Of a stretch of DNA of 64,000 nt, positions 167-64,000 are shown in pieces; within the stretch, counting starts at the first letter, position 1, and every line of letters starts with the position of its first letter. Source of the DNA: Bacilli bacterium. GTDB lineage: Bacteria; Bacillota_I; Bacilli_A; RFN20; UBA1709. A model generated the notes under the pieces. The model was not told the DNA's origin. It made no database searches and was given only the letters and a program-made list of their open reading frames with translations. The DNA lies in the NCBI GenBank assembly GCA_050949315.1, contig JBMNFL010000001.1, positions 64,001-128,000 of the forward strand. The letters run 5' to 3'. A program made the position numbers and the translations under genes.

Positions 167-1214
167 TGTCTTAATTGTCAAGACATATGTTACACTTTGA
201 GAAATATTCTGTTACAACTTGATTAGGGCTTTTAAAGTTAAGACATGTTTTAGCTGTATTGTTATATCGCTGCTCGTGTTTAGCTACTTGTTGTCTAAGT
301 TCTTTCTCGCTAATAAAGATTTTTCGCCCATACAGAATTTTTCCATCTTCTCTATGACTTCTTTCAACTTTTCCGTTCTGCCACGGTGAATAAGGTCTCG
401 TCCTTTTTAATTTTATTCCTAACTTATTGGCCGTCAGTTCAAATATACTCGTTTTATTAGTACGATCATCATCATTTACAAATTCGGCTCCGTTGTCCAC
501 TTGTATCATATTAATTGGAAATCCCATGGCTTTTTCTAGGCTTTTAAGATATTTTGTCGTTTCGTACGTACTCTTCTCTTTGACTATACAGAGAATTCTT
601 TTGCGACTAAACTCATCAATTCCAGTGATTTGATAATATCTGTCTCCATATGTTGGGAATTTTATGCATTCAAGGGGAACATACTTTATATCTATCTGCA
701 CCTTGTCTCCAGGATATTTTCCGTCCAATCTTTCGTATTTTGTATAACTCTTACGATGAATTTCCGGGGTTTTATAACCCTTTTTTCGTATTTGTCGACA
801 CATACTCCCAAAACTTCTTTTATACCCTTTTTGACAACATCGAACATATACTTCTGCCAATCCATAAACACCATTTCTTCTTAACATTCGCTTAATTAGC
901 GACAGCTCATCATCTGTATGAGCATTTGGACTAGTTAGGGGTCTTCTTGAGCGCAAGGCAAGACTTCTGATGTCCCCATCATATTTGTTTAATTGCCTAT
1001 AAACAAACTGACGGTTGGTGTGATAACGCCTTGCGGCTCTTGTTACACCATTTTTGAGCGCATATTCACACATTTTCTGGCGAAAGCGCATTTCTTCGGT
1101 TATACTAGTCATGAGAGAGCTCCTTTCGGTACCTTTTTTTGGATAAACTTATTGTACCAGAGTCTCTCTCTTTTTTTATTTATTTCTGTAACATATGTTT
1201 TATCACACTACACA
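167..1214 (-). mobile_element. IS481-family insertion sequence, 1048 bp, TGT...ACA ends, imperfect 28-bp terminal IRs (167-194 / 1187-1214)
   Basis: IR core ACATATGTTACA / TGTAACATATGT; single DDE transposase; flanked by 22-bp direct repeats. Confidence 0.88.
171..1112 (-). CDS. IS481-family DDE transposase (HTH + rve integrase core)
   Basis: QIDIKYV, QVDNGAEF, TRPYSPWQNGKVERSHR motifs. Confidence 0.93.
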   Translation of the reverse strand: MTSITEEMRFRQKMCEYALKNGVTRAARRYHTNRQFVYRQLNKYDGDIRSLALRSRRPLTSPNAHTDDELSLIKRMLRRNGVYGLAEVYVRCCQKGYKRSFGSMCRQIRKKGYKTPEIHRKSYTKYERLDGKYPGDKVQIDIKYVPLECIKFPTYGDRYYQITGIDEFSRKRILCIVKEKSTYETTKYLKSLEKAMGFPINMIQVDNGAEFVNDDDRTNKTSIFELTANKLGIKLKRTRPYSPWQNGKVERSHREDGKILYGRKIFISEKELRQQVAKHEQRYNNTAKTCLNFKSPNQVVTEYFSKCNICLDN

Positions 1215-3699: not shown

Positions 3700-5466
3700 T
3701 TATTTCTCTGATAATTTACTTTCCACTTTAGCCATGGTTTTTCTTCTTTTGCGCACATCTTTAATGACATGATTCAACACTTCATCTTCTTCAGTTAATT
3801 TATTCATTATGACGGGAACAATCATGGGATTACGATTGGTTTTTTCATAGATAAAAGAGGCCAAAGAGTTGCGAATGGTATTCTTAATATTGGCAAATGT
3901 CACGCGGCCAGCAAAGAGTTCTTGTAATGAATCTTCAACATGTTGACTGGCGCTTTTTACTAATTCACCTGTTTCATCAATTTTAATAAAGCCCCGAGAG
4001 ACAATCTTTGGGGGAATAATCAATTGATTGGTGCGTGAGTCCATAGTAATTAAGCAGATTAGCACACCATCGCTTGATAAGATTTTGCGATCGCGGATAA
4101 TGGCGGTAGAAAGCCCCGAGCTATCTTTGCCGTCAACATAGATATCTTCAGCAGCTACTCTTTGACCTAGTCGCACTTCGCCCCTGCGAATGATAATAGT
4201 GTCGCCATTTGCTAAAACAAAGATATTTTCTTTAGGTATTCCTAAGGATTGAGCGATTTCGGCATGAATTTTTAACATGCGGTATTCACCGTGGATAGGC
4301 ATAAAGTATTTAGGCTCTAATAGGGCCAGCATACACTTTAATTCTTCTTGGTTAGCGTGACCTGAGGCATGAATGTTATTCAAAATTGAATTGGTTAGAA
4401 CATTAGCTCCCTGTCGGTAAAGTTTATTGACAACACGATTAATACTTAAAGCATTACCAGGGATGGGACTAGAAGAAAAAACCACGGTGTCGCCAGGCAT
4501 AATTTTCAAATATTTATGAGTACCATTGGAAATACGCGACAAGGCGGCTAAGGGTTCACCTTGACTACCTGTACAAAGGATTAATAGCTGCTCTGGTCGA
4601 TACAAATTAACATTATTCATGGCAATAATTTGGGAATCTGGACAGCGAATGTAACCATATTTTCTACCAATAGAGACGGTTTTATCCATTGAGCGCCCAA
4701 CGATGGCGATTTTTCGCTTGAAACGAACAGCGGCCTCAACAATTTGTTGAATACGATGGATATTAGAGGCGAAAGTGGCCACTAGTAAACGACCACGGGT
4801 ATTTTTAAAAACATCATTAATCTGTTCGACAACTTTACTTTCACTTAAGGATAAACCCGGAACTTCAGCGTTAGTTGAGTCACTTAAAAGTAGAGTAACA
4901 CCAGCTTTACCAATAGCGGCAATCTTATGAAGATCCATGTGTTGGCCGATAGGAGTTAAATCAATTTTAAAATCACCAGTATGGACAATTCGACCATTAG
5001 GTGTATTAATAGCTAGTCCTAAAGAATCGGGAATTGAGTGCGTGACACTAAAGAAATCAATACGCATATCATCAATGGTTAGAGAAGAATCTCCATCAAT
5101 TTCCTCAATGTTTACTTTTTGACGAATATGAAATTCTTCTAATTTATTTTTGATTAAAGCAGCCGCTAAACGCGGAGCATAGATAATGGGAATATTAACT
5201 TTTTGAAGCAGAAAAGGAATCGAACCGATGTGATCCTCGTGTCCATGCGTAATAAGTAAAGCCTTGATTTTATATTGATTAGAAACCAAATAACTAAAAT
5301 CAGGGATTACATAGTCAATACCGGGCAAATTTTCTTCTGGGAACATTACGCCCGAGTCGATTATTATGATAGTTGTATCATCTTCAACACAGTAAAGATT
5401 TTTACCTACTTCACCAAGACCGCCCAAAGCAAACACTGCAGTTTCACTTCGGCTAAAATTGTGCAT
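3700..5466 (-). CDS. rnj: Ribonuclease J
   Basis: GGLGEVGKN, THGHEDHIG, HASGH motifs. Confidence 0.96.
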   Translation of the reverse strand: MHNFSRSETAVFALGGLGEVGKNLYCVEDDTTIIIIDSGVMFPEENLPGIDYVIPDFSYLVSNQYKIKALLITHGHEDHIGSIPFLLQKVNIPIIYAPRLAAALIKNKLEEFHIRQKVNIEEIDGDSSLTIDDMRIDFFSVTHSIPDSLGLAINTPNGRIVHTGDFKIDLTPIGQHMDLHKIAAIGKAGVTLLLSDSTNAEVPGLSLSESKVVEQINDVFKNTRGRLLVATFASNIHRIQQIVEAAVRFKRKIAIVGRSMDKTVSIGRKYGYIRCPDSQIIAMNNVNLYRPEQLLILCTGSQGEPLAALSRISNGTHKYLKIMPGDTVVFSSSPIPGNALSINRVVNKLYRQGANVLTNSILNNIHASGHANQEELKCMLALLEPKYFMPIHGEYRMLKIHAEIAQSLGIPKENIFVLANGDTIIIRRGEVRLGQRVAAEDIYVDGKDSSGLSTAIIRDRKILSSDGVLICLITMDSRTNQLIIPPKIVSRGFIKIDETGELVKSASQHVEDSLQELFAGRVTFANIKNTIRNSLASFIYEKTNRNPMIVPVIMNKLTEEDEVLNHVIKDVRKRRKTMAKVESKLSEK

Positions 5467-6908: not shown

Positions 6909-7013
6909 GTTTTTACCTCTTCTTATATAGATAATTATGGACTTTTTAAAGAAAAATGGGAACCTGTGTTGTGAAACTATATAAAATTAAAAGCCGTAAG
7001 GAAAAATTTAAAA

Positions 7014-8348
7014 TTATTTCAAAACTTCCCAATAACCATATTGATTATTTCCTATCCTTTGCAAATAGCCCTTTTTAATTAAAGCATTAGTATATCTTTG
7101 TACAGTTTTTTCGGTTTTTCCTATTGCTTTAGCTAAATCCATTTTAATAATTTTGGAATTCTCTTTAATTAAATTTAATATCGTTTTTTCGTTTTCGTTT
7201 AAGTCATCAGCATAGACATTTGGTTGGACATTTGGGTGGACATTTTTTCTGTGAAAAGTAAAATAAAAACCATAAGCGGTATTTTCAAAAGACCATTTTA
7301 TATCTGCTTCTAAACAAAGCTTATTCATTCTTTTATATCCTGTACCGGACTTTTCAACATCTTTACATCTAAATAATGTTTCTAATATCAAAGGATTTCT
7401 TTTTATTGATGAAATATCTTTTTCTATAAAATCATGTGGAGTAAGCTCATCAGGAAAAGATCCTGGATTAAAGATGGTTATTTTATTTGGATGAATATTT
7501 ATTTCTATTTCTGGACTGTTTTTGTAGTTAGCATGTGCAAAGGCATTAATTACCATTTCTCTTAATGCAGCTATAGGAATTTCTGGTATTTCATCTCTTT
7601 GTGTTCCCTTGATATCTATTCTCCAATTAATACGATTTCTTAAATAAACCATGGCCTCATTAATCAAATTATAAATATTATCTTTAAATAATTTTAAATC
7701 ATTAAATGTTATTTTCTCATTTGTAGCAAAACTAGCCACTTTTAAACTAACAGGAGCATTTTTCCCAAATAAATAAAAGGCGGCATTAGTTAACATCCCA
7801 TTTGATAAAAGACCAAGAATAGTAAGAAGGCTTTTTTTATTATATTCTTTCATTTGAAGTCTTCCACAATTTATGGATTCTTTATAAAAAAGCCCGAGAG
7901 TTTTATCATCTATTTCATCTAAGTCATGAGATGAAGGTTCTTTTTCCCATTGCAAAGAATAATTGCTTTCTTTAATAAGCCTAATCAATTCATCACGGCT
8001 CATTTTTCTATTTTGAGTACCAACACGAATTAAAAATTTACCATAGGCAGAATAAGGTTGTTGTGTTCCTGAAAAAGACACCTTAATAATACTTTTCCCA
8101 TCAATAACAAGACTCTCTATTGTTGGAGTAATTTTTGGTTCTATATCTCTTGTAATTGATTCAGCCAAATCTTTTAAAGTAGAGTCACTAACTATTTGCC
8201 CCCGAATATTACCATTATCGTATACTCCGAAGTATAATACGCCACAACCATGTTTGTTAATAATAGCTGCAATGGATTCCAAAGCTTCATGTCTTTCGCT
8301 TGTTGATTCTTTAAATTCTAATATTTCAGACTCATGACCCAAGTTCAT
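7014..8348 (-). CDS. AlbA_2 (Schlafen-like) + HATPase_c_4-like + C-terminal winged-HTH protein
   Basis: ESEILEFKES...GVLYFGVYDNG; ALREMVINAFAH...NPG...GTG; C-terminal HTH. Start reassigned to ATG 8348 (SD AGAGGTG). More AT-rich than neighbours. Confidence 0.85.
   Translation of the reverse strand: MNLGHESEILEFKESTSERHEALESIAAIINKHGCGVLYFGVYDNGNIRGQIVSDSTLKDLAESITRDIEPKITPTIESLVIDGKSIIKVSFSGTQQPYSAYGKFLIRVGTQNRKMSRDELIRLIKESNYSLQWEKEPSSHDLDEIDDKTLGLFYKESINCGRLQMKEYNKKSLLTILGLLSNGMLTNAAFYLFGKNAPVSLKVASFATNEKITFNDLKLFKDNIYNLINEAMVYLRNRINWRIDIKGTQRDEIPEIPIAALREMVINAFAHANYKNSPEIEINIHPNKITIFNPGSFPDELTPHDFIEKDISSIKRNPLILETLFRCKDVEKSGTGYKRMNKLCLEADIKWSFENTAYGFYFTFHRKNVHPNVQPNVYADDLNENEKTILNLIKENSKIIKMDLAKAIGKTEKTVQRYTNALIKKGYLQRIGNNQYGYWEVLK
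7215..7246 (-). repeat. Intragenic 12-bp tandem repeat (about 2.6 units of AAATGTCCACCC) encoding NVHP-NVQP-NV linker
   Basis: - strand reads AAATGTCCACCC AAATGTCCAACC AAATGTC. Confidence 0.9.
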
Positions 8349-8370
8349 ACAAACACCTCTCTTTTTACTC

Positions 8371-8399
8371 ATCATAGCAAATGTCCACCCAAATGTCCA
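8371..8399 (-). promoter_or_regulatory. Promoter of the AlbA_2 gene, with -35 formed by the repeat
   Basis: TGGACA (8399-8394), 17-bp spacer, TG-c-TATGAT (-10 at 8376-8371). Confidence 0.65.
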
Positions 8400-8417
8400 C
8401 CCAAATGTCCACCCAAA
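8378..8417 (+). repeat. Perfect 3x 12-bp tandem repeat (CAAATGTCCACC)3+CAAA, inverted relative to 7215-7246
   Basis: Read directly from the sequence. Confidence 0.95.
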
Positions 8418-8596
8418 ACTTTATTGTTTTAAGAAAGACTATTAAAACAGAGAAAACCAATTGTTCAGATTAAAATAAAAAAAGAATCACGTAATAATAG
8501 ATAATAACTTTTAATGTAATGAGTATTCAAACTTGTCCTGGTTGACTTTTATGCTTTTTATGGACATAATAAGATTATTCTAAGGGGGAGAAGAGA

Positions 8597-20065: not shown

Positions 20066-21508
20066 ATGTTTGATATCCTAATTATTGGGGCCGGGGTTGT
20101 TGGCTCAGCTATCGCTAGAGAACTTGCGAGGTATCAAGTTAAAGTAGCGGTGTTAGAAAAAGAAAATGATGTCTGTGAAGAGAGTTCAAAAGCCAATAGT
20201 GCCATCGTGCATTCCGGCTACGACCCACTCCCAGGCACTTTAAAAGCTAAACTCAATGTTGAGGGAAATAAATTGTTTGATCAATTGAGTCAAGAACTTG
20301 ATTTTGAATTTGAAAGAATTGGTTCTTTGACAGTAGCGAAAAACAAGGAAGAGTTAGCCGTGCTTGAAGAATTAGTAAAACGCGGTCAAGAAAATGGCGT
20401 TTTTACTCGCATTGTTAAAGATGAAGAATTGCAAGAAATGGAACCATTTTTAGTTGATGAGGCCATCGCTGCCTTATATGCCCCAACAGCCGGTATTGTC
20501 AATCCTTTTGAATATAATGTCGCCTTGATGGAAAATGCCATGGATAATGGTGTCCAACTCTTTTTGAATAATAAAGTTATCTCGATTAATAAAAAGAAAA
20601 ACTATTACGAAGTACTAACTAATAAGGCTATTTATAAGGCCAAAGTAGTTGTTAATGCGGCGGGTCTTTATAGTGGCGAAATCGCTAAGATGATCGGTAA
20701 TGATAGTATAAAAATCACGCCCTTCAAGGGAGAATATTATGTTTTAGACCATTTTGAGCGACCCTTTGTCAAGCACACAATTTTCCCACCACCTTCACAG
20801 GTTGGAAAAGGAATTTTAGTTTCGCCAACGACTCATGGTAATTATCTTCTTGGTCCTAATAGTGTAGAAACAGTGCCAGAAGATAAATCAACCACGGCTG
20901 CTGGTTTAGCCTCCATCAGAGAAGGAGCCCAAAGTTTAGTACAAAAAATTCCTTTCCAAGAAGTTATTCGCTCTTTTGCGGGTCTTAGAGCTAAGGATAT
21001 TTCAGATGATTTTGTTATTGAGGAAGATAAGAAAAATCGAAACTTTTTTCATGTGGCTGGCATTCAGTCTCCAGGTTTGGTTTCTTCACCTGCGATTGCT
21101 AAACTAGTCGTCAGCTTAATTGGAAAGAATATTAAATTAGAATCCAATCCTAATTTTAATCCTTATCGTCGCCCTTTGATTCGTCTAAAGAAAATGCCTT
21201 TAGAAGAAGTTGAAAAACTGATTGCTAAAGATCCGCGTTTCGGTCGTATTATTTGCCGTTGTGAGAAGATTTCTGAAGGAGAAATCGTCGATGTCATTCA
21301 TCGTAACTGCGGCGCGAGAACGGTTAAAGGAATTAAAAAACGTATTCGTCCAGGCTTTGGCAAATGTCAAGGTGGTTTCTGTGAACCTCTATGTGTCAAA
21401 ATTCTTGCCCGTGAGCTCGGCTTAAATGCTTTAGATATTCGTTATGGAACAAAGGATTCATATATTTTAGTCCGTCCAAGTAAGGAGGAAGAACATGAAA
21501 AAGGTTGA
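20066..21508 (+). CDS. FAD-dependent glycerol-3-phosphate dehydrogenase/oxidase with C-terminal BFD-like [2Fe-2S] domain
   Basis: GAGVVG, SKANSAIVHSG, CRCE...GKCQGGFC; follows glpK. Confidence 0.85.
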   Translation: MFDILIIGAGVVGSAIARELARYQVKVAVLEKENDVCEESSKANSAIVHSGYDPLPGTLKAKLNVEGNKLFDQLSQELDFEFERIGSLTVAKNKEELAVLEELVKRGQENGVFTRIVKDEELQEMEPFLVDEAIAALYAPTAGIVNPFEYNVALMENAMDNGVQLFLNNKVISINKKKNYYEVLTNKAIYKAKVVVNAAGLYSGEIAKMIGNDSIKITPFKGEYYVLDHFERPFVKHTIFPPPSQVGKGILVSPTTHGNYLLGPNSVETVPEDKSTTAAGLASIREGAQSLVQKIPFQEVIRSFAGLRAKDISDDFVIEEDKKNRNFFHVAGIQSPGLVSSPAIAKLVVSLIGKNIKLESNPNFNPYRRPLIRLKKMPLEEVEKLIAKDPRFGRIICRCEKISEGEIVDVIHRNCGARTVKGIKKRIRPGFGKCQGGFCEPLCVKILARELGLNALDIRYGTKDSYILVRPSKEEEHEKG

Positions 21509-63556: not shown

Positions 63557-64000
63557 TTAATCTTTTAAAGAAGTGATAGGAATAATATAAACACCATCAG
63601 TGTTTTTATATGCCATATTTCCAACACCATATATCACGCATTTTATTAGTGGTTCTTTGCCGCCACTATTAACGATGCTTTCACAAATTTTTATCAAGTT
63701 TTCAGCACCTTCTTCGGCCTTATCAAGACCCAGTTTTATTTCAAACGCACACCAATTGCCATCATCTAATTCTAAAACAGCATCAATTTCATTGCCTCGA
63801 TAATCTTGATAATGAAATAGTTTTGCATTCATAGCCTGGGCATATATTGATAGATCTCTTTCCACTAGTGCTTCAAACATGAAACCAAAGGTGTTTAAAT
63901 CACCCATCATTTTTTTAGGCGTTAACTTTAACATTGCACAGGCCATTGCTGGATCAGAAAAATGCCTTTTTTCCATTTGTTTAACTCTTAAGGATGATCT
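63557..64000 (-). CDS. AAA ATPase + DUF4143 protein, C-terminal part (runs off window)
   Basis: KRHFSDP, GFMFEALV, EIDAV...AFEIK nuclease-like motif; frame open to 64000. Confidence 0.82.
   Translation of the reverse strand, partial: RSSLRVKQMEKRHFSDPAMACAMLKLTPKKMMGDLNTFGFMFEALVERDLSIYAQAMNAKLFHYQDYRGNEIDAVLELDDGNWCAFEIKLGLDKAEEGAENLIKICESIVNSGGKEPLIKCVIYGVGNMAYKNTDGVYIIPITSLKD

Follow-up and report, generated by a model that had tools for sequence, protein, structure and literature searches.

Repressors that bind an auxiliary operator inside a translated region and form a DNA loop with the primary operator are known from several bacterial systems, i.e. lac with O2 in lacZ, gal with OI in galE, and purR with O2 in its own coding region. 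Here we compare these systems with a locus found in a 64,000-nt stretch of DNA from a Bacilli bacterium (NCBI GenBank assembly GCA_050949315.1, contig JBMNFL010000001.1, positions 64,001 to 128,000 of the forward strand); this whole stretch is called the window, and positions refer to it unless another locus is named. The gene in question (7014..8348, minus strand) codes for 444 amino acids plus stop, with a Schlafen/AlbA_2 domain, a GHKL ATPase and a winged helix, i.e. a Schlatpase-HTH protein (HTH, helix-turn-helix). A 12-nt motif is repeated at its promoter and recurs, inverted, within the codons of the linker that precedes the winged helix. We think it probable that the protein represses its own gene through an operator at the promoter and a distal auxiliary operator in the linker codons, the two being bridged, probably, by an oligomer.

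The likeness to lac, gal and purR lies in the general layout, as in each case a primary operator is on the core promoter, a second copy of the motif is in a translated region and a multivalent repressor is thought to bridge the two. The differences are also clear. In the present locus the internal array is tandem and in frame and makes a peptide repeat in the interdomain linker of the regulator itself, the two sites are 1.1 kb apart and consist of direct 12-nt repeats instead of palindromes, their binding is a prediction, and a Schlafen nuclease-ATPase module forms part of the regulator. Intragenic auxiliary operators as such are known; what would be new is an in-frame tandem operator array that yields a family-wide peptide repeat.

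Other known systems resemble the locus in single features. The site of a DNA-binding protein within its own gene is also found in parS, which lies inside spo0J/parB, but parS is a single palindrome with a role in segregation. The 12-bp TAEL-type repeats in the central region of HsdS, a component of type I restriction enzymes, are in frame and give a 4-amino-acid repeat between two domains, as here, but their role is to space the domains of the protein, and no counterpart of them is known at the promoter. Finally, inverted repeats that flank a segment with promoter parts are reminiscent of invertible DNA switches such as fim, hin and the shufflons; in contrast to these, no serine or tyrosine recombinase was found among the ORFs scanned in our window, and neither the orientation of the repeats nor a hypothetical alternative product is conserved.

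The iteron or direct-repeat regulators, i.e. plasmid Rep proteins such as RepE and the phage P2 C repressor, are, according to the accessible parts of the sources (PMC13028717, PMC2995052), winged-helix or HTH proteins that act on tandem direct repeats and repress themselves at their own promoter. Our locus would share this principle, but it has no replication origin or plasmid context, its units are 12 nt as opposed to about 19-22 nt, and its second array lies within the regulator's own coding sequence. In terms of protein architecture the closest relatives are the pSlfn HisKinase-HTH proteins, or Schlatpases with a C-terminal HTH, which have the same three domains. In the accessible parts of two recent sources (bioRxiv 10.64898/2026.05.29.728809; PMC13056530) 19.2% of the 5,930 prokaryotic Schlafens surveyed in one of them belong to the pSlfn HisKinase-HTH class, HTH domains account for >90% of the Schlatpase tails in the other, and related Schlafen fusions defend against phages by cleaving tRNA. 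We found no mention of self-regulation, promoter arrays or linker repeats in those parts of the two sources ('autoregulat' occurs 0 times in PMC13056530), nor did we see there a test of the Schlafen HTH class. Full-text literature searches gave no description of promoter-linker pairing or self-regulation in this family.

The repeat arrays and the promoter

The promoter array (8379..8414, minus strand) consists of three perfect 12-nt units that read GGGTGGACATTT in the sense of the gene, and is the putative primary operator. The intragenic array (7215..7245, plus strand), the putative distal auxiliary operator, comprises 2.6 units of the promoter type and is inverted with respect to the promoter array. 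On the plus strand AAATGTCCACCC has exact matches starting at 8379, 8391 and 8403, and on the minus strand it is found perfectly at 7234-7245, with one mismatch at 7222-7233 and as a 7-nt partial copy at 7215-7221. A repeat search returned the same pair as an inverted repeat with arms at 7215-7245 and 8379-8409 (31 nt, 97% complementary, 1133 nt between them), as well as a direct-repeat family with 12-nt spacing. An earlier note, made from the letters of this DNA, had described three perfect units at 8379-8414 and about 2.6 inverted ones in the linker, and both searches bear this out.

Note that the bare count of 12-mers with at most two mismatches is unremarkable (9 observed vs 4.5 expected, with 4 of 100 shuffles reaching 9); it is the exactness and the clustering of the copies that are significant, not their raw number. 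Ungapped matching of the 250 nt upstream with the linker window gave a top score of 28, whereas none of 50 other windows from this gene scored above 12. Two copies of TGGACA within 30 nt on one strand occur only in these two arrays in the whole window, and a regulon search revealed no further core cluster elsewhere in it.

A consensus scan predicts a TG-extended promoter on the minus strand (8399..8371, 10 of 12 matches) with a 17-nt spacer. The -35 hexamer TGGACA (8394..8399), a consensus match only, lies within the middle repeat unit, the proximal unit fills the spacer, and the -10 hexamer TATGAT (8371..8376) has TGC before it. The scan agrees with the earlier claim that the array supplies the -35, and the putative operator would thus lie on the core promoter of its own gene. 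The start codon is likely the ATG at 8348, since a ribosome-binding site read from the sequence, AGAGAGGTG (8354..8362, minus strand), precedes it by 5 nt and the start of a longer open reading frame (ORF), at 8375, falls within the -10. The homologues start at matching MNLG... or MIIG... sequences.

Promoter and linker vary together

A word-indexed protein search gave 306 relatives, 120 of which were listed, with 50-100% identity to the query, and a scan of one genome per species gave 80 loci with 43-67% identity. At the linker position many of the homologues carry [ND]V.. tetrapeptides, and at least two [ND]V dipeptides are present in 55 of the 119 listed homologues. When the 140 nt upstream were compared with the reverse-complemented linker, NNGACA-like core repeats were seen on the promoter at nearly every locus. 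In 51 of 68 loci a -10-like hexamer follows a core copy at a distance of 16-18 nt (nearly always 17). Adjacent promoter cores are 12 nt apart in 80 of 128 pairs and 24 nt apart in 20, despite the region being non-coding, and it is this 12-nt unit spacing from which the 4-amino-acid period of the linker appears to follow.

The correspondence between the two regions was quantified by a hexamer test, for which 74 of 81 loci were usable (in the other seven the upstream region was short or the linker was absent). Hexamers that occur two or more times between -150 and -15 of the promoter account for 281 of 3344 linker positions vs 525 of 93295 positions elsewhere in the gene, which is a 14.9-fold enrichment. 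Individually, 20 of the 74 loci are significant at p<0.001, and among about 50 windows per locus the linker ranks alone in first place in 24 of the 69 loci scored. When linkers were shuffled among loci the count was 156 +/- 24 with a maximum of 243, i.e. none of 2000 shuffles reached the observed value. Within the gene the motif is confined to the linker, and at least two linker copies of the locus's own promoter core are present in 31 of 67 loci.

In terms of strict 5-mer classes, a dominant core is found in both places in 35 of 76 loci, and promoter and linker agree in 33 of these 35 (25 GGACA, 7 TGACA and 1 TGCCA), the two discordant loci having an AGACA promoter with a GGACA linker. The core types TGGACA, GTGACA, GGGACA and GTGCCA shift jointly in promoter and linker. 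The window has GGGTGGACATTT units at the promoter and NVHP in the linker, and L002 has GCCTGGACATTT and NVHA. GTGACA promoters go together with NVT linkers (L005, L010, L069), GGGACA with NVP (L070, L075), ACGACA with NSV (L073), and GTGCCATT with NGT (L053). The earlier note had proposed to look for such a co-variation among homologues, and the enrichment, the shuffling and the agreement of the cores all answer in its favour. A second copy of the motif thus appears to be maintained at a distance and to co-evolve with the promoter copy. The number of promoter units averages 2.26 (2-3) in loci with a linker array and 3.67 (up to 7) in loci without one, which would fit an oligomer that needs several sites.

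The same promoter-linker design is present in the finished isolate sequence of Mycoplasmopsis arginini NCTC10129, where four 12-nt-spaced units with a GTGACA core precede TATAAT, three of them reading TAGTGACA, and the linker is NVTLNVTKDVTSDVTK. A 'split' second copy in M. arginini looks like an assembly artefact, as the copies differ only by 1-nt homopolymer indels. A variant of the design is found in the Lachnospiraceae-type loci (L018-L041): the codons R-T-N-V-Q at the start of the linker spell the palindrome GGACAAATGTCC, and the promoters have an inverted pair of TGGACA and TGTCCA around the spacer, with units 24 nt apart and not in tandem, an arrangement that hints at dimer-type sites in these loci. 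In a flank scan of 62 loci (369 kb) the only extra clusters were further-upstream copies of the array and arrays in the 3' flank; in L077 and L045 the contig ends at the linker.

The recognition helix follows the core type

The C-terminal winged helix-turn-helix comprises residues 383-444 (7017..7202, minus strand; HTH_24 at 383-429, E 3e-7, above cut-off). Its structural model has helices at 385-396, 402-409 and 413-425 and a wing at 429-442, and MarR-type chains match it in a PDB profile search. The third helix, residues 413-425 (7074..7112, minus strand), is the recognition helix, and residue 414 in its first turn (K414, codon 7107-7109) follows the type of the core: lysine is found with TGGACA or GGGACA, and arginine with TAGACA, GAGACA, GTGACA or ACGACA. 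A residue-core table of 63 rows contains 35 K/GGACA, 19 R/other and 8+1 discordant rows, a part of the discordance coming from the crude counting of TGACA in the flanks.

In six independent pairs the core moved the same way as the residue in 4.8 and the opposite way in 0. The K/R switch recurs within small clades (L043/51/52 vs L060; L042; L033; L001 vs L004) and is visible even at the protein level, where repeated V[QH] units occur with K in 15 of 17 cases and VT units with R in 10 of 11. The core type therefore tracks K or R at residue 414, as one would expect from the link between 12-mer and recognition helix envisaged in the earlier note. The correlation, which stems from few independent events, points to the gene's own winged helix as the binder of the arrays.

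The conserved object is DNA rather than peptide

The interdomain linker codons (7203..7247, minus strand) specify residues 368-382 (KNVHPNVQPNVYADD), and the linker peptide reads KNVHPNVQPNVY. In the AlphaFold2 model, which was built with 95 homologues and has a mean predicted local distance difference test score (pLDDT) of 88.9, residues 371-378 are the sole segment with pLDDT <50; this is exactly the repeat. Residues 367 to 384 have no secondary structure in the model.

Three observations show what is conserved in this linker. Across 30 diverged sequences from a single clade, major codons make up a fraction of 0.895 in the linker vs 0.602 elsewhere (p 1.7e-5), the linker is the best sliding window of the whole gene for codon freezing, and its Val is always GTC, its Thr ACA and its Ile ATA. 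In L013 the linker has three units in direct orientation with respect to the promoter, which encode NRAT-NRMA-YRVT after residue 366, whereas its sisters have the same motif inverted, encoding NVTL-DVTL. In the clade of L043, L051, L052 and L060 the array in the linker has decayed, and 48-297 nt beyond the stop codon there is an inverted one (L043 5359-5420; L051 5617-5660; L052 5381-5430; L060 about 5373-5395). The core of this 3'-flank array follows the promoter core and the helix of each locus, i.e. DK with TGGACA in L060, and ER with TAGACA in L043, L051 and L052.

The frozen synonymous sites, the flipped array of L013 and the relocation past the stop codon mean that the conserved object is the DNA motif and not the peptide, and that the position of the distal array is flexible. 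The central idea of the earlier note, which saw a DNA signal in the linker repeat, is in this respect supported, also by the co-variation described above. Pairing of a 5' leader RNA with the linker was considered and rejected, because the promoter array is upstream of the -10 and hence untranscribed from this promoter.

Linker repeats in the wider family

A profile search at E<=1e-3 gave 24,067 cluster representatives of the family. Many unrelated 4-amino-acid repeats were seen in the linkers of family representatives, which confirms the statement in the earlier note that such repeats are common before the HTH in this superfamily. Strictly defined linker repeats were detected in 20 of 181 proteins, all with a period of 4, as compared to 0 of 912 control windows elsewhere in proteins with any repeat. 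Perfect 12-nt linker repeats also occur in distant relatives with at most 31% identity (Parabacteroides, Arcobacter, Emticicia, Deinococcus). Examples are L087 (5884-5934), L088 from Arcobacter (21114-21149) and L095 from Deinococcus (21124-21159), where the units are ERVN x4, GEKL x3 and PQVT x3, respectively; a Deinococcus relative annotated as Fic carries PPQVTPQVTPQV.

No linker repeat was seen in the Fusobacterium, S. dysgalactiae and Chlorohelix homologues, and blastn of two arrays against all plasmids returned only the query itself or nothing. The phage homologues are all <30% identical.

Proposed mechanism and its alternatives

We propose that the 12-mers are sites for the protein's own C-terminal winged helix. 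An occupied promoter array would cover the -35 and the spacer and so shut the gene off, and the inverted copy in the linker would be a second, distal operator that is written in frame. The NVHP/NVQP repeat of the protein may owe its existence solely to this in-frame operator, for which the disordered linker is presumably the only tolerant place in the gene. An oligomer formed via the ATPase domain could occupy both arrays at once, looping about 1.1 kb, and the bridging would tighten the repression of a potentially toxic nuclease of the Schlafen type. Binding, repression, oligomerisation and looping are all steps that we infer. A multivalent oligomer able to bridge the arrays is plausible, as ATP induces tetramers of the homologous SLFN+GHKL module in the Schlafen-Argonaute RzAgo, according to the accessible part of bioRxiv 10.64898/2026.05.29.728809; this tetramer, together with the tRNA cleavage by related Schlafens, also makes tight repression via bridged arrays plausible. 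Among the explanations put forward in the earlier note, operators for the cognate winged helix combined with looping provide the best fit to the array on the -35 and spacer, to the link between K/R and the core, and to the array past the stop codon, with binding and looping as its predicted elements.

There are a number of points that weigh against this mechanism and need to be discussed. All cores resemble the -35 consensus TTGACA, so a part of the promoter signal would be expected even without a repressor, and a 12-nt spacing sets neighbouring sites on different faces of the helix. The linker has no copy of the promoter core in 27 of 67 loci, which argues that the distal site is dispensable. 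The statistics are based on few independent events: for promoter vs linker class there are only 4 independent pairs, of which 2 moved the same way and 2 were unchanged (sign test p 0.5), and for helix vs core the median p is 0.0625. Despite a recent K-to-R switch, the linkers of L042 and L033 have retained TGGACA-like copies, and L003 is an exception in having R with AGGACA. In the distant relatives a partner array was not found within 160 nt upstream or up to 20 kb on each side.

The alternative that survives best, although we regard it as rather unlikely, accepts binding at the same sites and dispenses with looping, so that the distal array would be a roadblock or attenuator before the winged-helix codons, or a sink acting in cis for the nascent winged helix. 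In most loci the array is indeed directly 5' of these codons, and the evidence for a DNA signal applies equally to this explanation. It does not agree with the clade in which the distal array comes after the stop codon, where it could neither attenuate the gene nor precede the winged-helix codons. In addition, the higher number of promoter copies where the distal array is absent suggests interchangeable sites rather than a block that depends on position.

It is very unlikely, in our opinion, that the internal copy has no binding function, its match to the promoter being maintained by gene conversion between the arrays or left over from domain shuffling or from slippage in a flexible linker. 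This explanation draws on the varied tetrapeptide repeats that precede the HTH across the superfamily, and on distant members in which perfect 12-nt units without a detected partner array look like recent slippage. As proposed in the earlier note, a domain-shuffling scar may be the origin of the repeats, but it leaves the frozen synonymous sites unexplained: in the 30 diverged sequences where they are found, the promoter units are non-tandem and share too little sequence for conversion. Nor does it account for a motif that is present in the gene only at the linker, for an array that moved to the 3' flank with the same change of core, or for a period that is always 4 amino acids (20 of 20 strict detections) and matches the 12-nt period of the promoter.

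We give little credence to an inversion switch, also considered in the earlier note, in which the arrays are recombination sites. Flipping 7246-8378 would keep a promoter and give an HTH-less protein that ends in NVHPNVHPNVHPKLYCFKKDY, and this tail followed by a stop is a correct reading of 8380-8445. The window does have the required 31-nt, 97% inverted repeat, either arm can supply a -35 by construction, and RecA, RecU and RuvX are encoded in the window; rare RecA-driven flipping between the arrays is conceivable. There are also family representatives that end at or near the linker (P0171, P0192, P0210, P0220, P0233 and P0256, possibly partial), and Mesomycoplasma hyorhinis (L091) has separate Schlatpase and winged-helix ORFs. 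The latter (644-1690 and 1715-1993) are split at the linker position, which could reflect either a naturally divided form or faulty assembly. On the other hand, none of the 54 window ORFs searched with Pfam codes for a recombinase of the serine or tyrosine type; apart from the three genes just named, the search gave only an rve transposase 6 kb away. The arrays of L013 are direct, so recombination there would delete the gene, and in many homologues the two sites share just about 10-13 nt, with 24-nt spacing in the promoter and 12-nt spacing in the linker. The hypothetical tails, which have a median length of 22.5 amino acids in 28 loci, are not conserved, and 0 of 119 listed close homologues have such a tail. 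A switch would moreover have no effect in loci with a distal array in the 3' flank, and it leaves the co-variation of K/R and core unexplained.

Binding of the arrays by another factor, such as region 4 of a sigma subunit of RNA polymerase or a host factor, is likewise highly improbable, for although all cores match TTGACA at 4-5 of 6 positions and an antisense -10-like TAAAAT follows the internal array of the window, such a -10 is present in just 5 of 38 loci, the core type tracks the protein's own recognition-helix residue even inside small clades, and the arrays are private to each gene, with none else in the window and few elsewhere in the flanks scanned. The corresponding antisense promoter (TGGACA and TAAAAT, 16 nt apart, 7237-7264, plus strand) was accordingly treated as a chance occurrence.

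If the linker repeat is an operator for the protein's own winged helix, a widespread and puzzling peptide repeat would be explained as the shadow of a DNA signal, and the gene would be a clean case of a coding sequence with a second, non-protein code. The pairing of K or R at residue 414 with G or A at core position 2 would provide a specificity rule for a large class of uncharacterised regulators. The results also suggest that prokaryotic Schlafen-ATPase-HTH genes, members of an actively studied phage-defence family, are under tight self-repression. A far broader extension is speculative, and we consider it unlikely: linker repeats in tens of thousands of Schlafen-ATPase-HTH proteins, the HTH-tailed relatives annotated as Fic included, would be in-frame copies of the proteins' own operators. 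The target of each HTH could then be deduced from its linker peptide, where Q or H as the third residue of a unit would stand for TG, T for GT, P for GG and Y for TA, and the arrays would template an ATP-dependent oligomer or filament that silences the gene and parks the nuclease until infection.

Domain architecture of the protein

All three domains of the Schlatpase-HTH (COG2865-type) architecture are present, i.e. SLFN_AlbA_2, a GHKL ATPase and a C-terminal HTH. SLFN_AlbA_2 (PF04326) covers residues 6-117 (7998..8333, minus strand; Pfam E 6.3e-22, above cut-off), and Foldseek matches this part to the mammalian Schlafens SLFN5/11/12/13/14, to SAMD9 and to 3LMM. Among its acidic residues E11 is invariant, and E6, E8 and D44 are present in at least 90% of homologues. 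HATPase_c_4 (PF13749, GHKL-type) covers residues 280-358 (7275..7511, minus strand; Pfam E 2.3e-12, above cut-off). The Foldseek matches of the ATPase part are histidine kinases (GHKL) and PDK, and the residues E264, N268, G335 and G337 are invariant across 95 homologues. The gene product is predicted to be a Schlafen-type nuclease that is potentially toxic.

Genomic context

The gene is a low-GC islet (0.28-0.32 at 7000-8400 vs 0.36-0.40 in its neighbours) flanked by housekeeping genes, with RNase J and gdh on one side and gmk, priA and rsmB on the other. Its low GC content, as compared to these neighbours, suggests that a single gene was horizontally acquired between gdh and gmk. The transposase mentioned above is an ORF at 171-1112 (minus strand) with rve and rve_3 integrase-core domains, i.e. 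of insertion sequence type; at the opposite end, an ORF with a DUF4143 domain (63557-63976, minus strand) is cut by the end of the window.

The homologues from M. arginini (L081), Arcobacter (L088) and Deinococcus (L095) are located in or beside type I restriction-modification loci, either between hsdS and hsdR or after DUF262-RelE-HigA beside the M and S subunits. Of 131 nearest neighbours at the 80 loci, 21 match PADLOC models at E<=1e-15, a figure without a control set; the matches include PDC-S01 in 7 cases, AbiEii in 3 and methyltransferases in 2.

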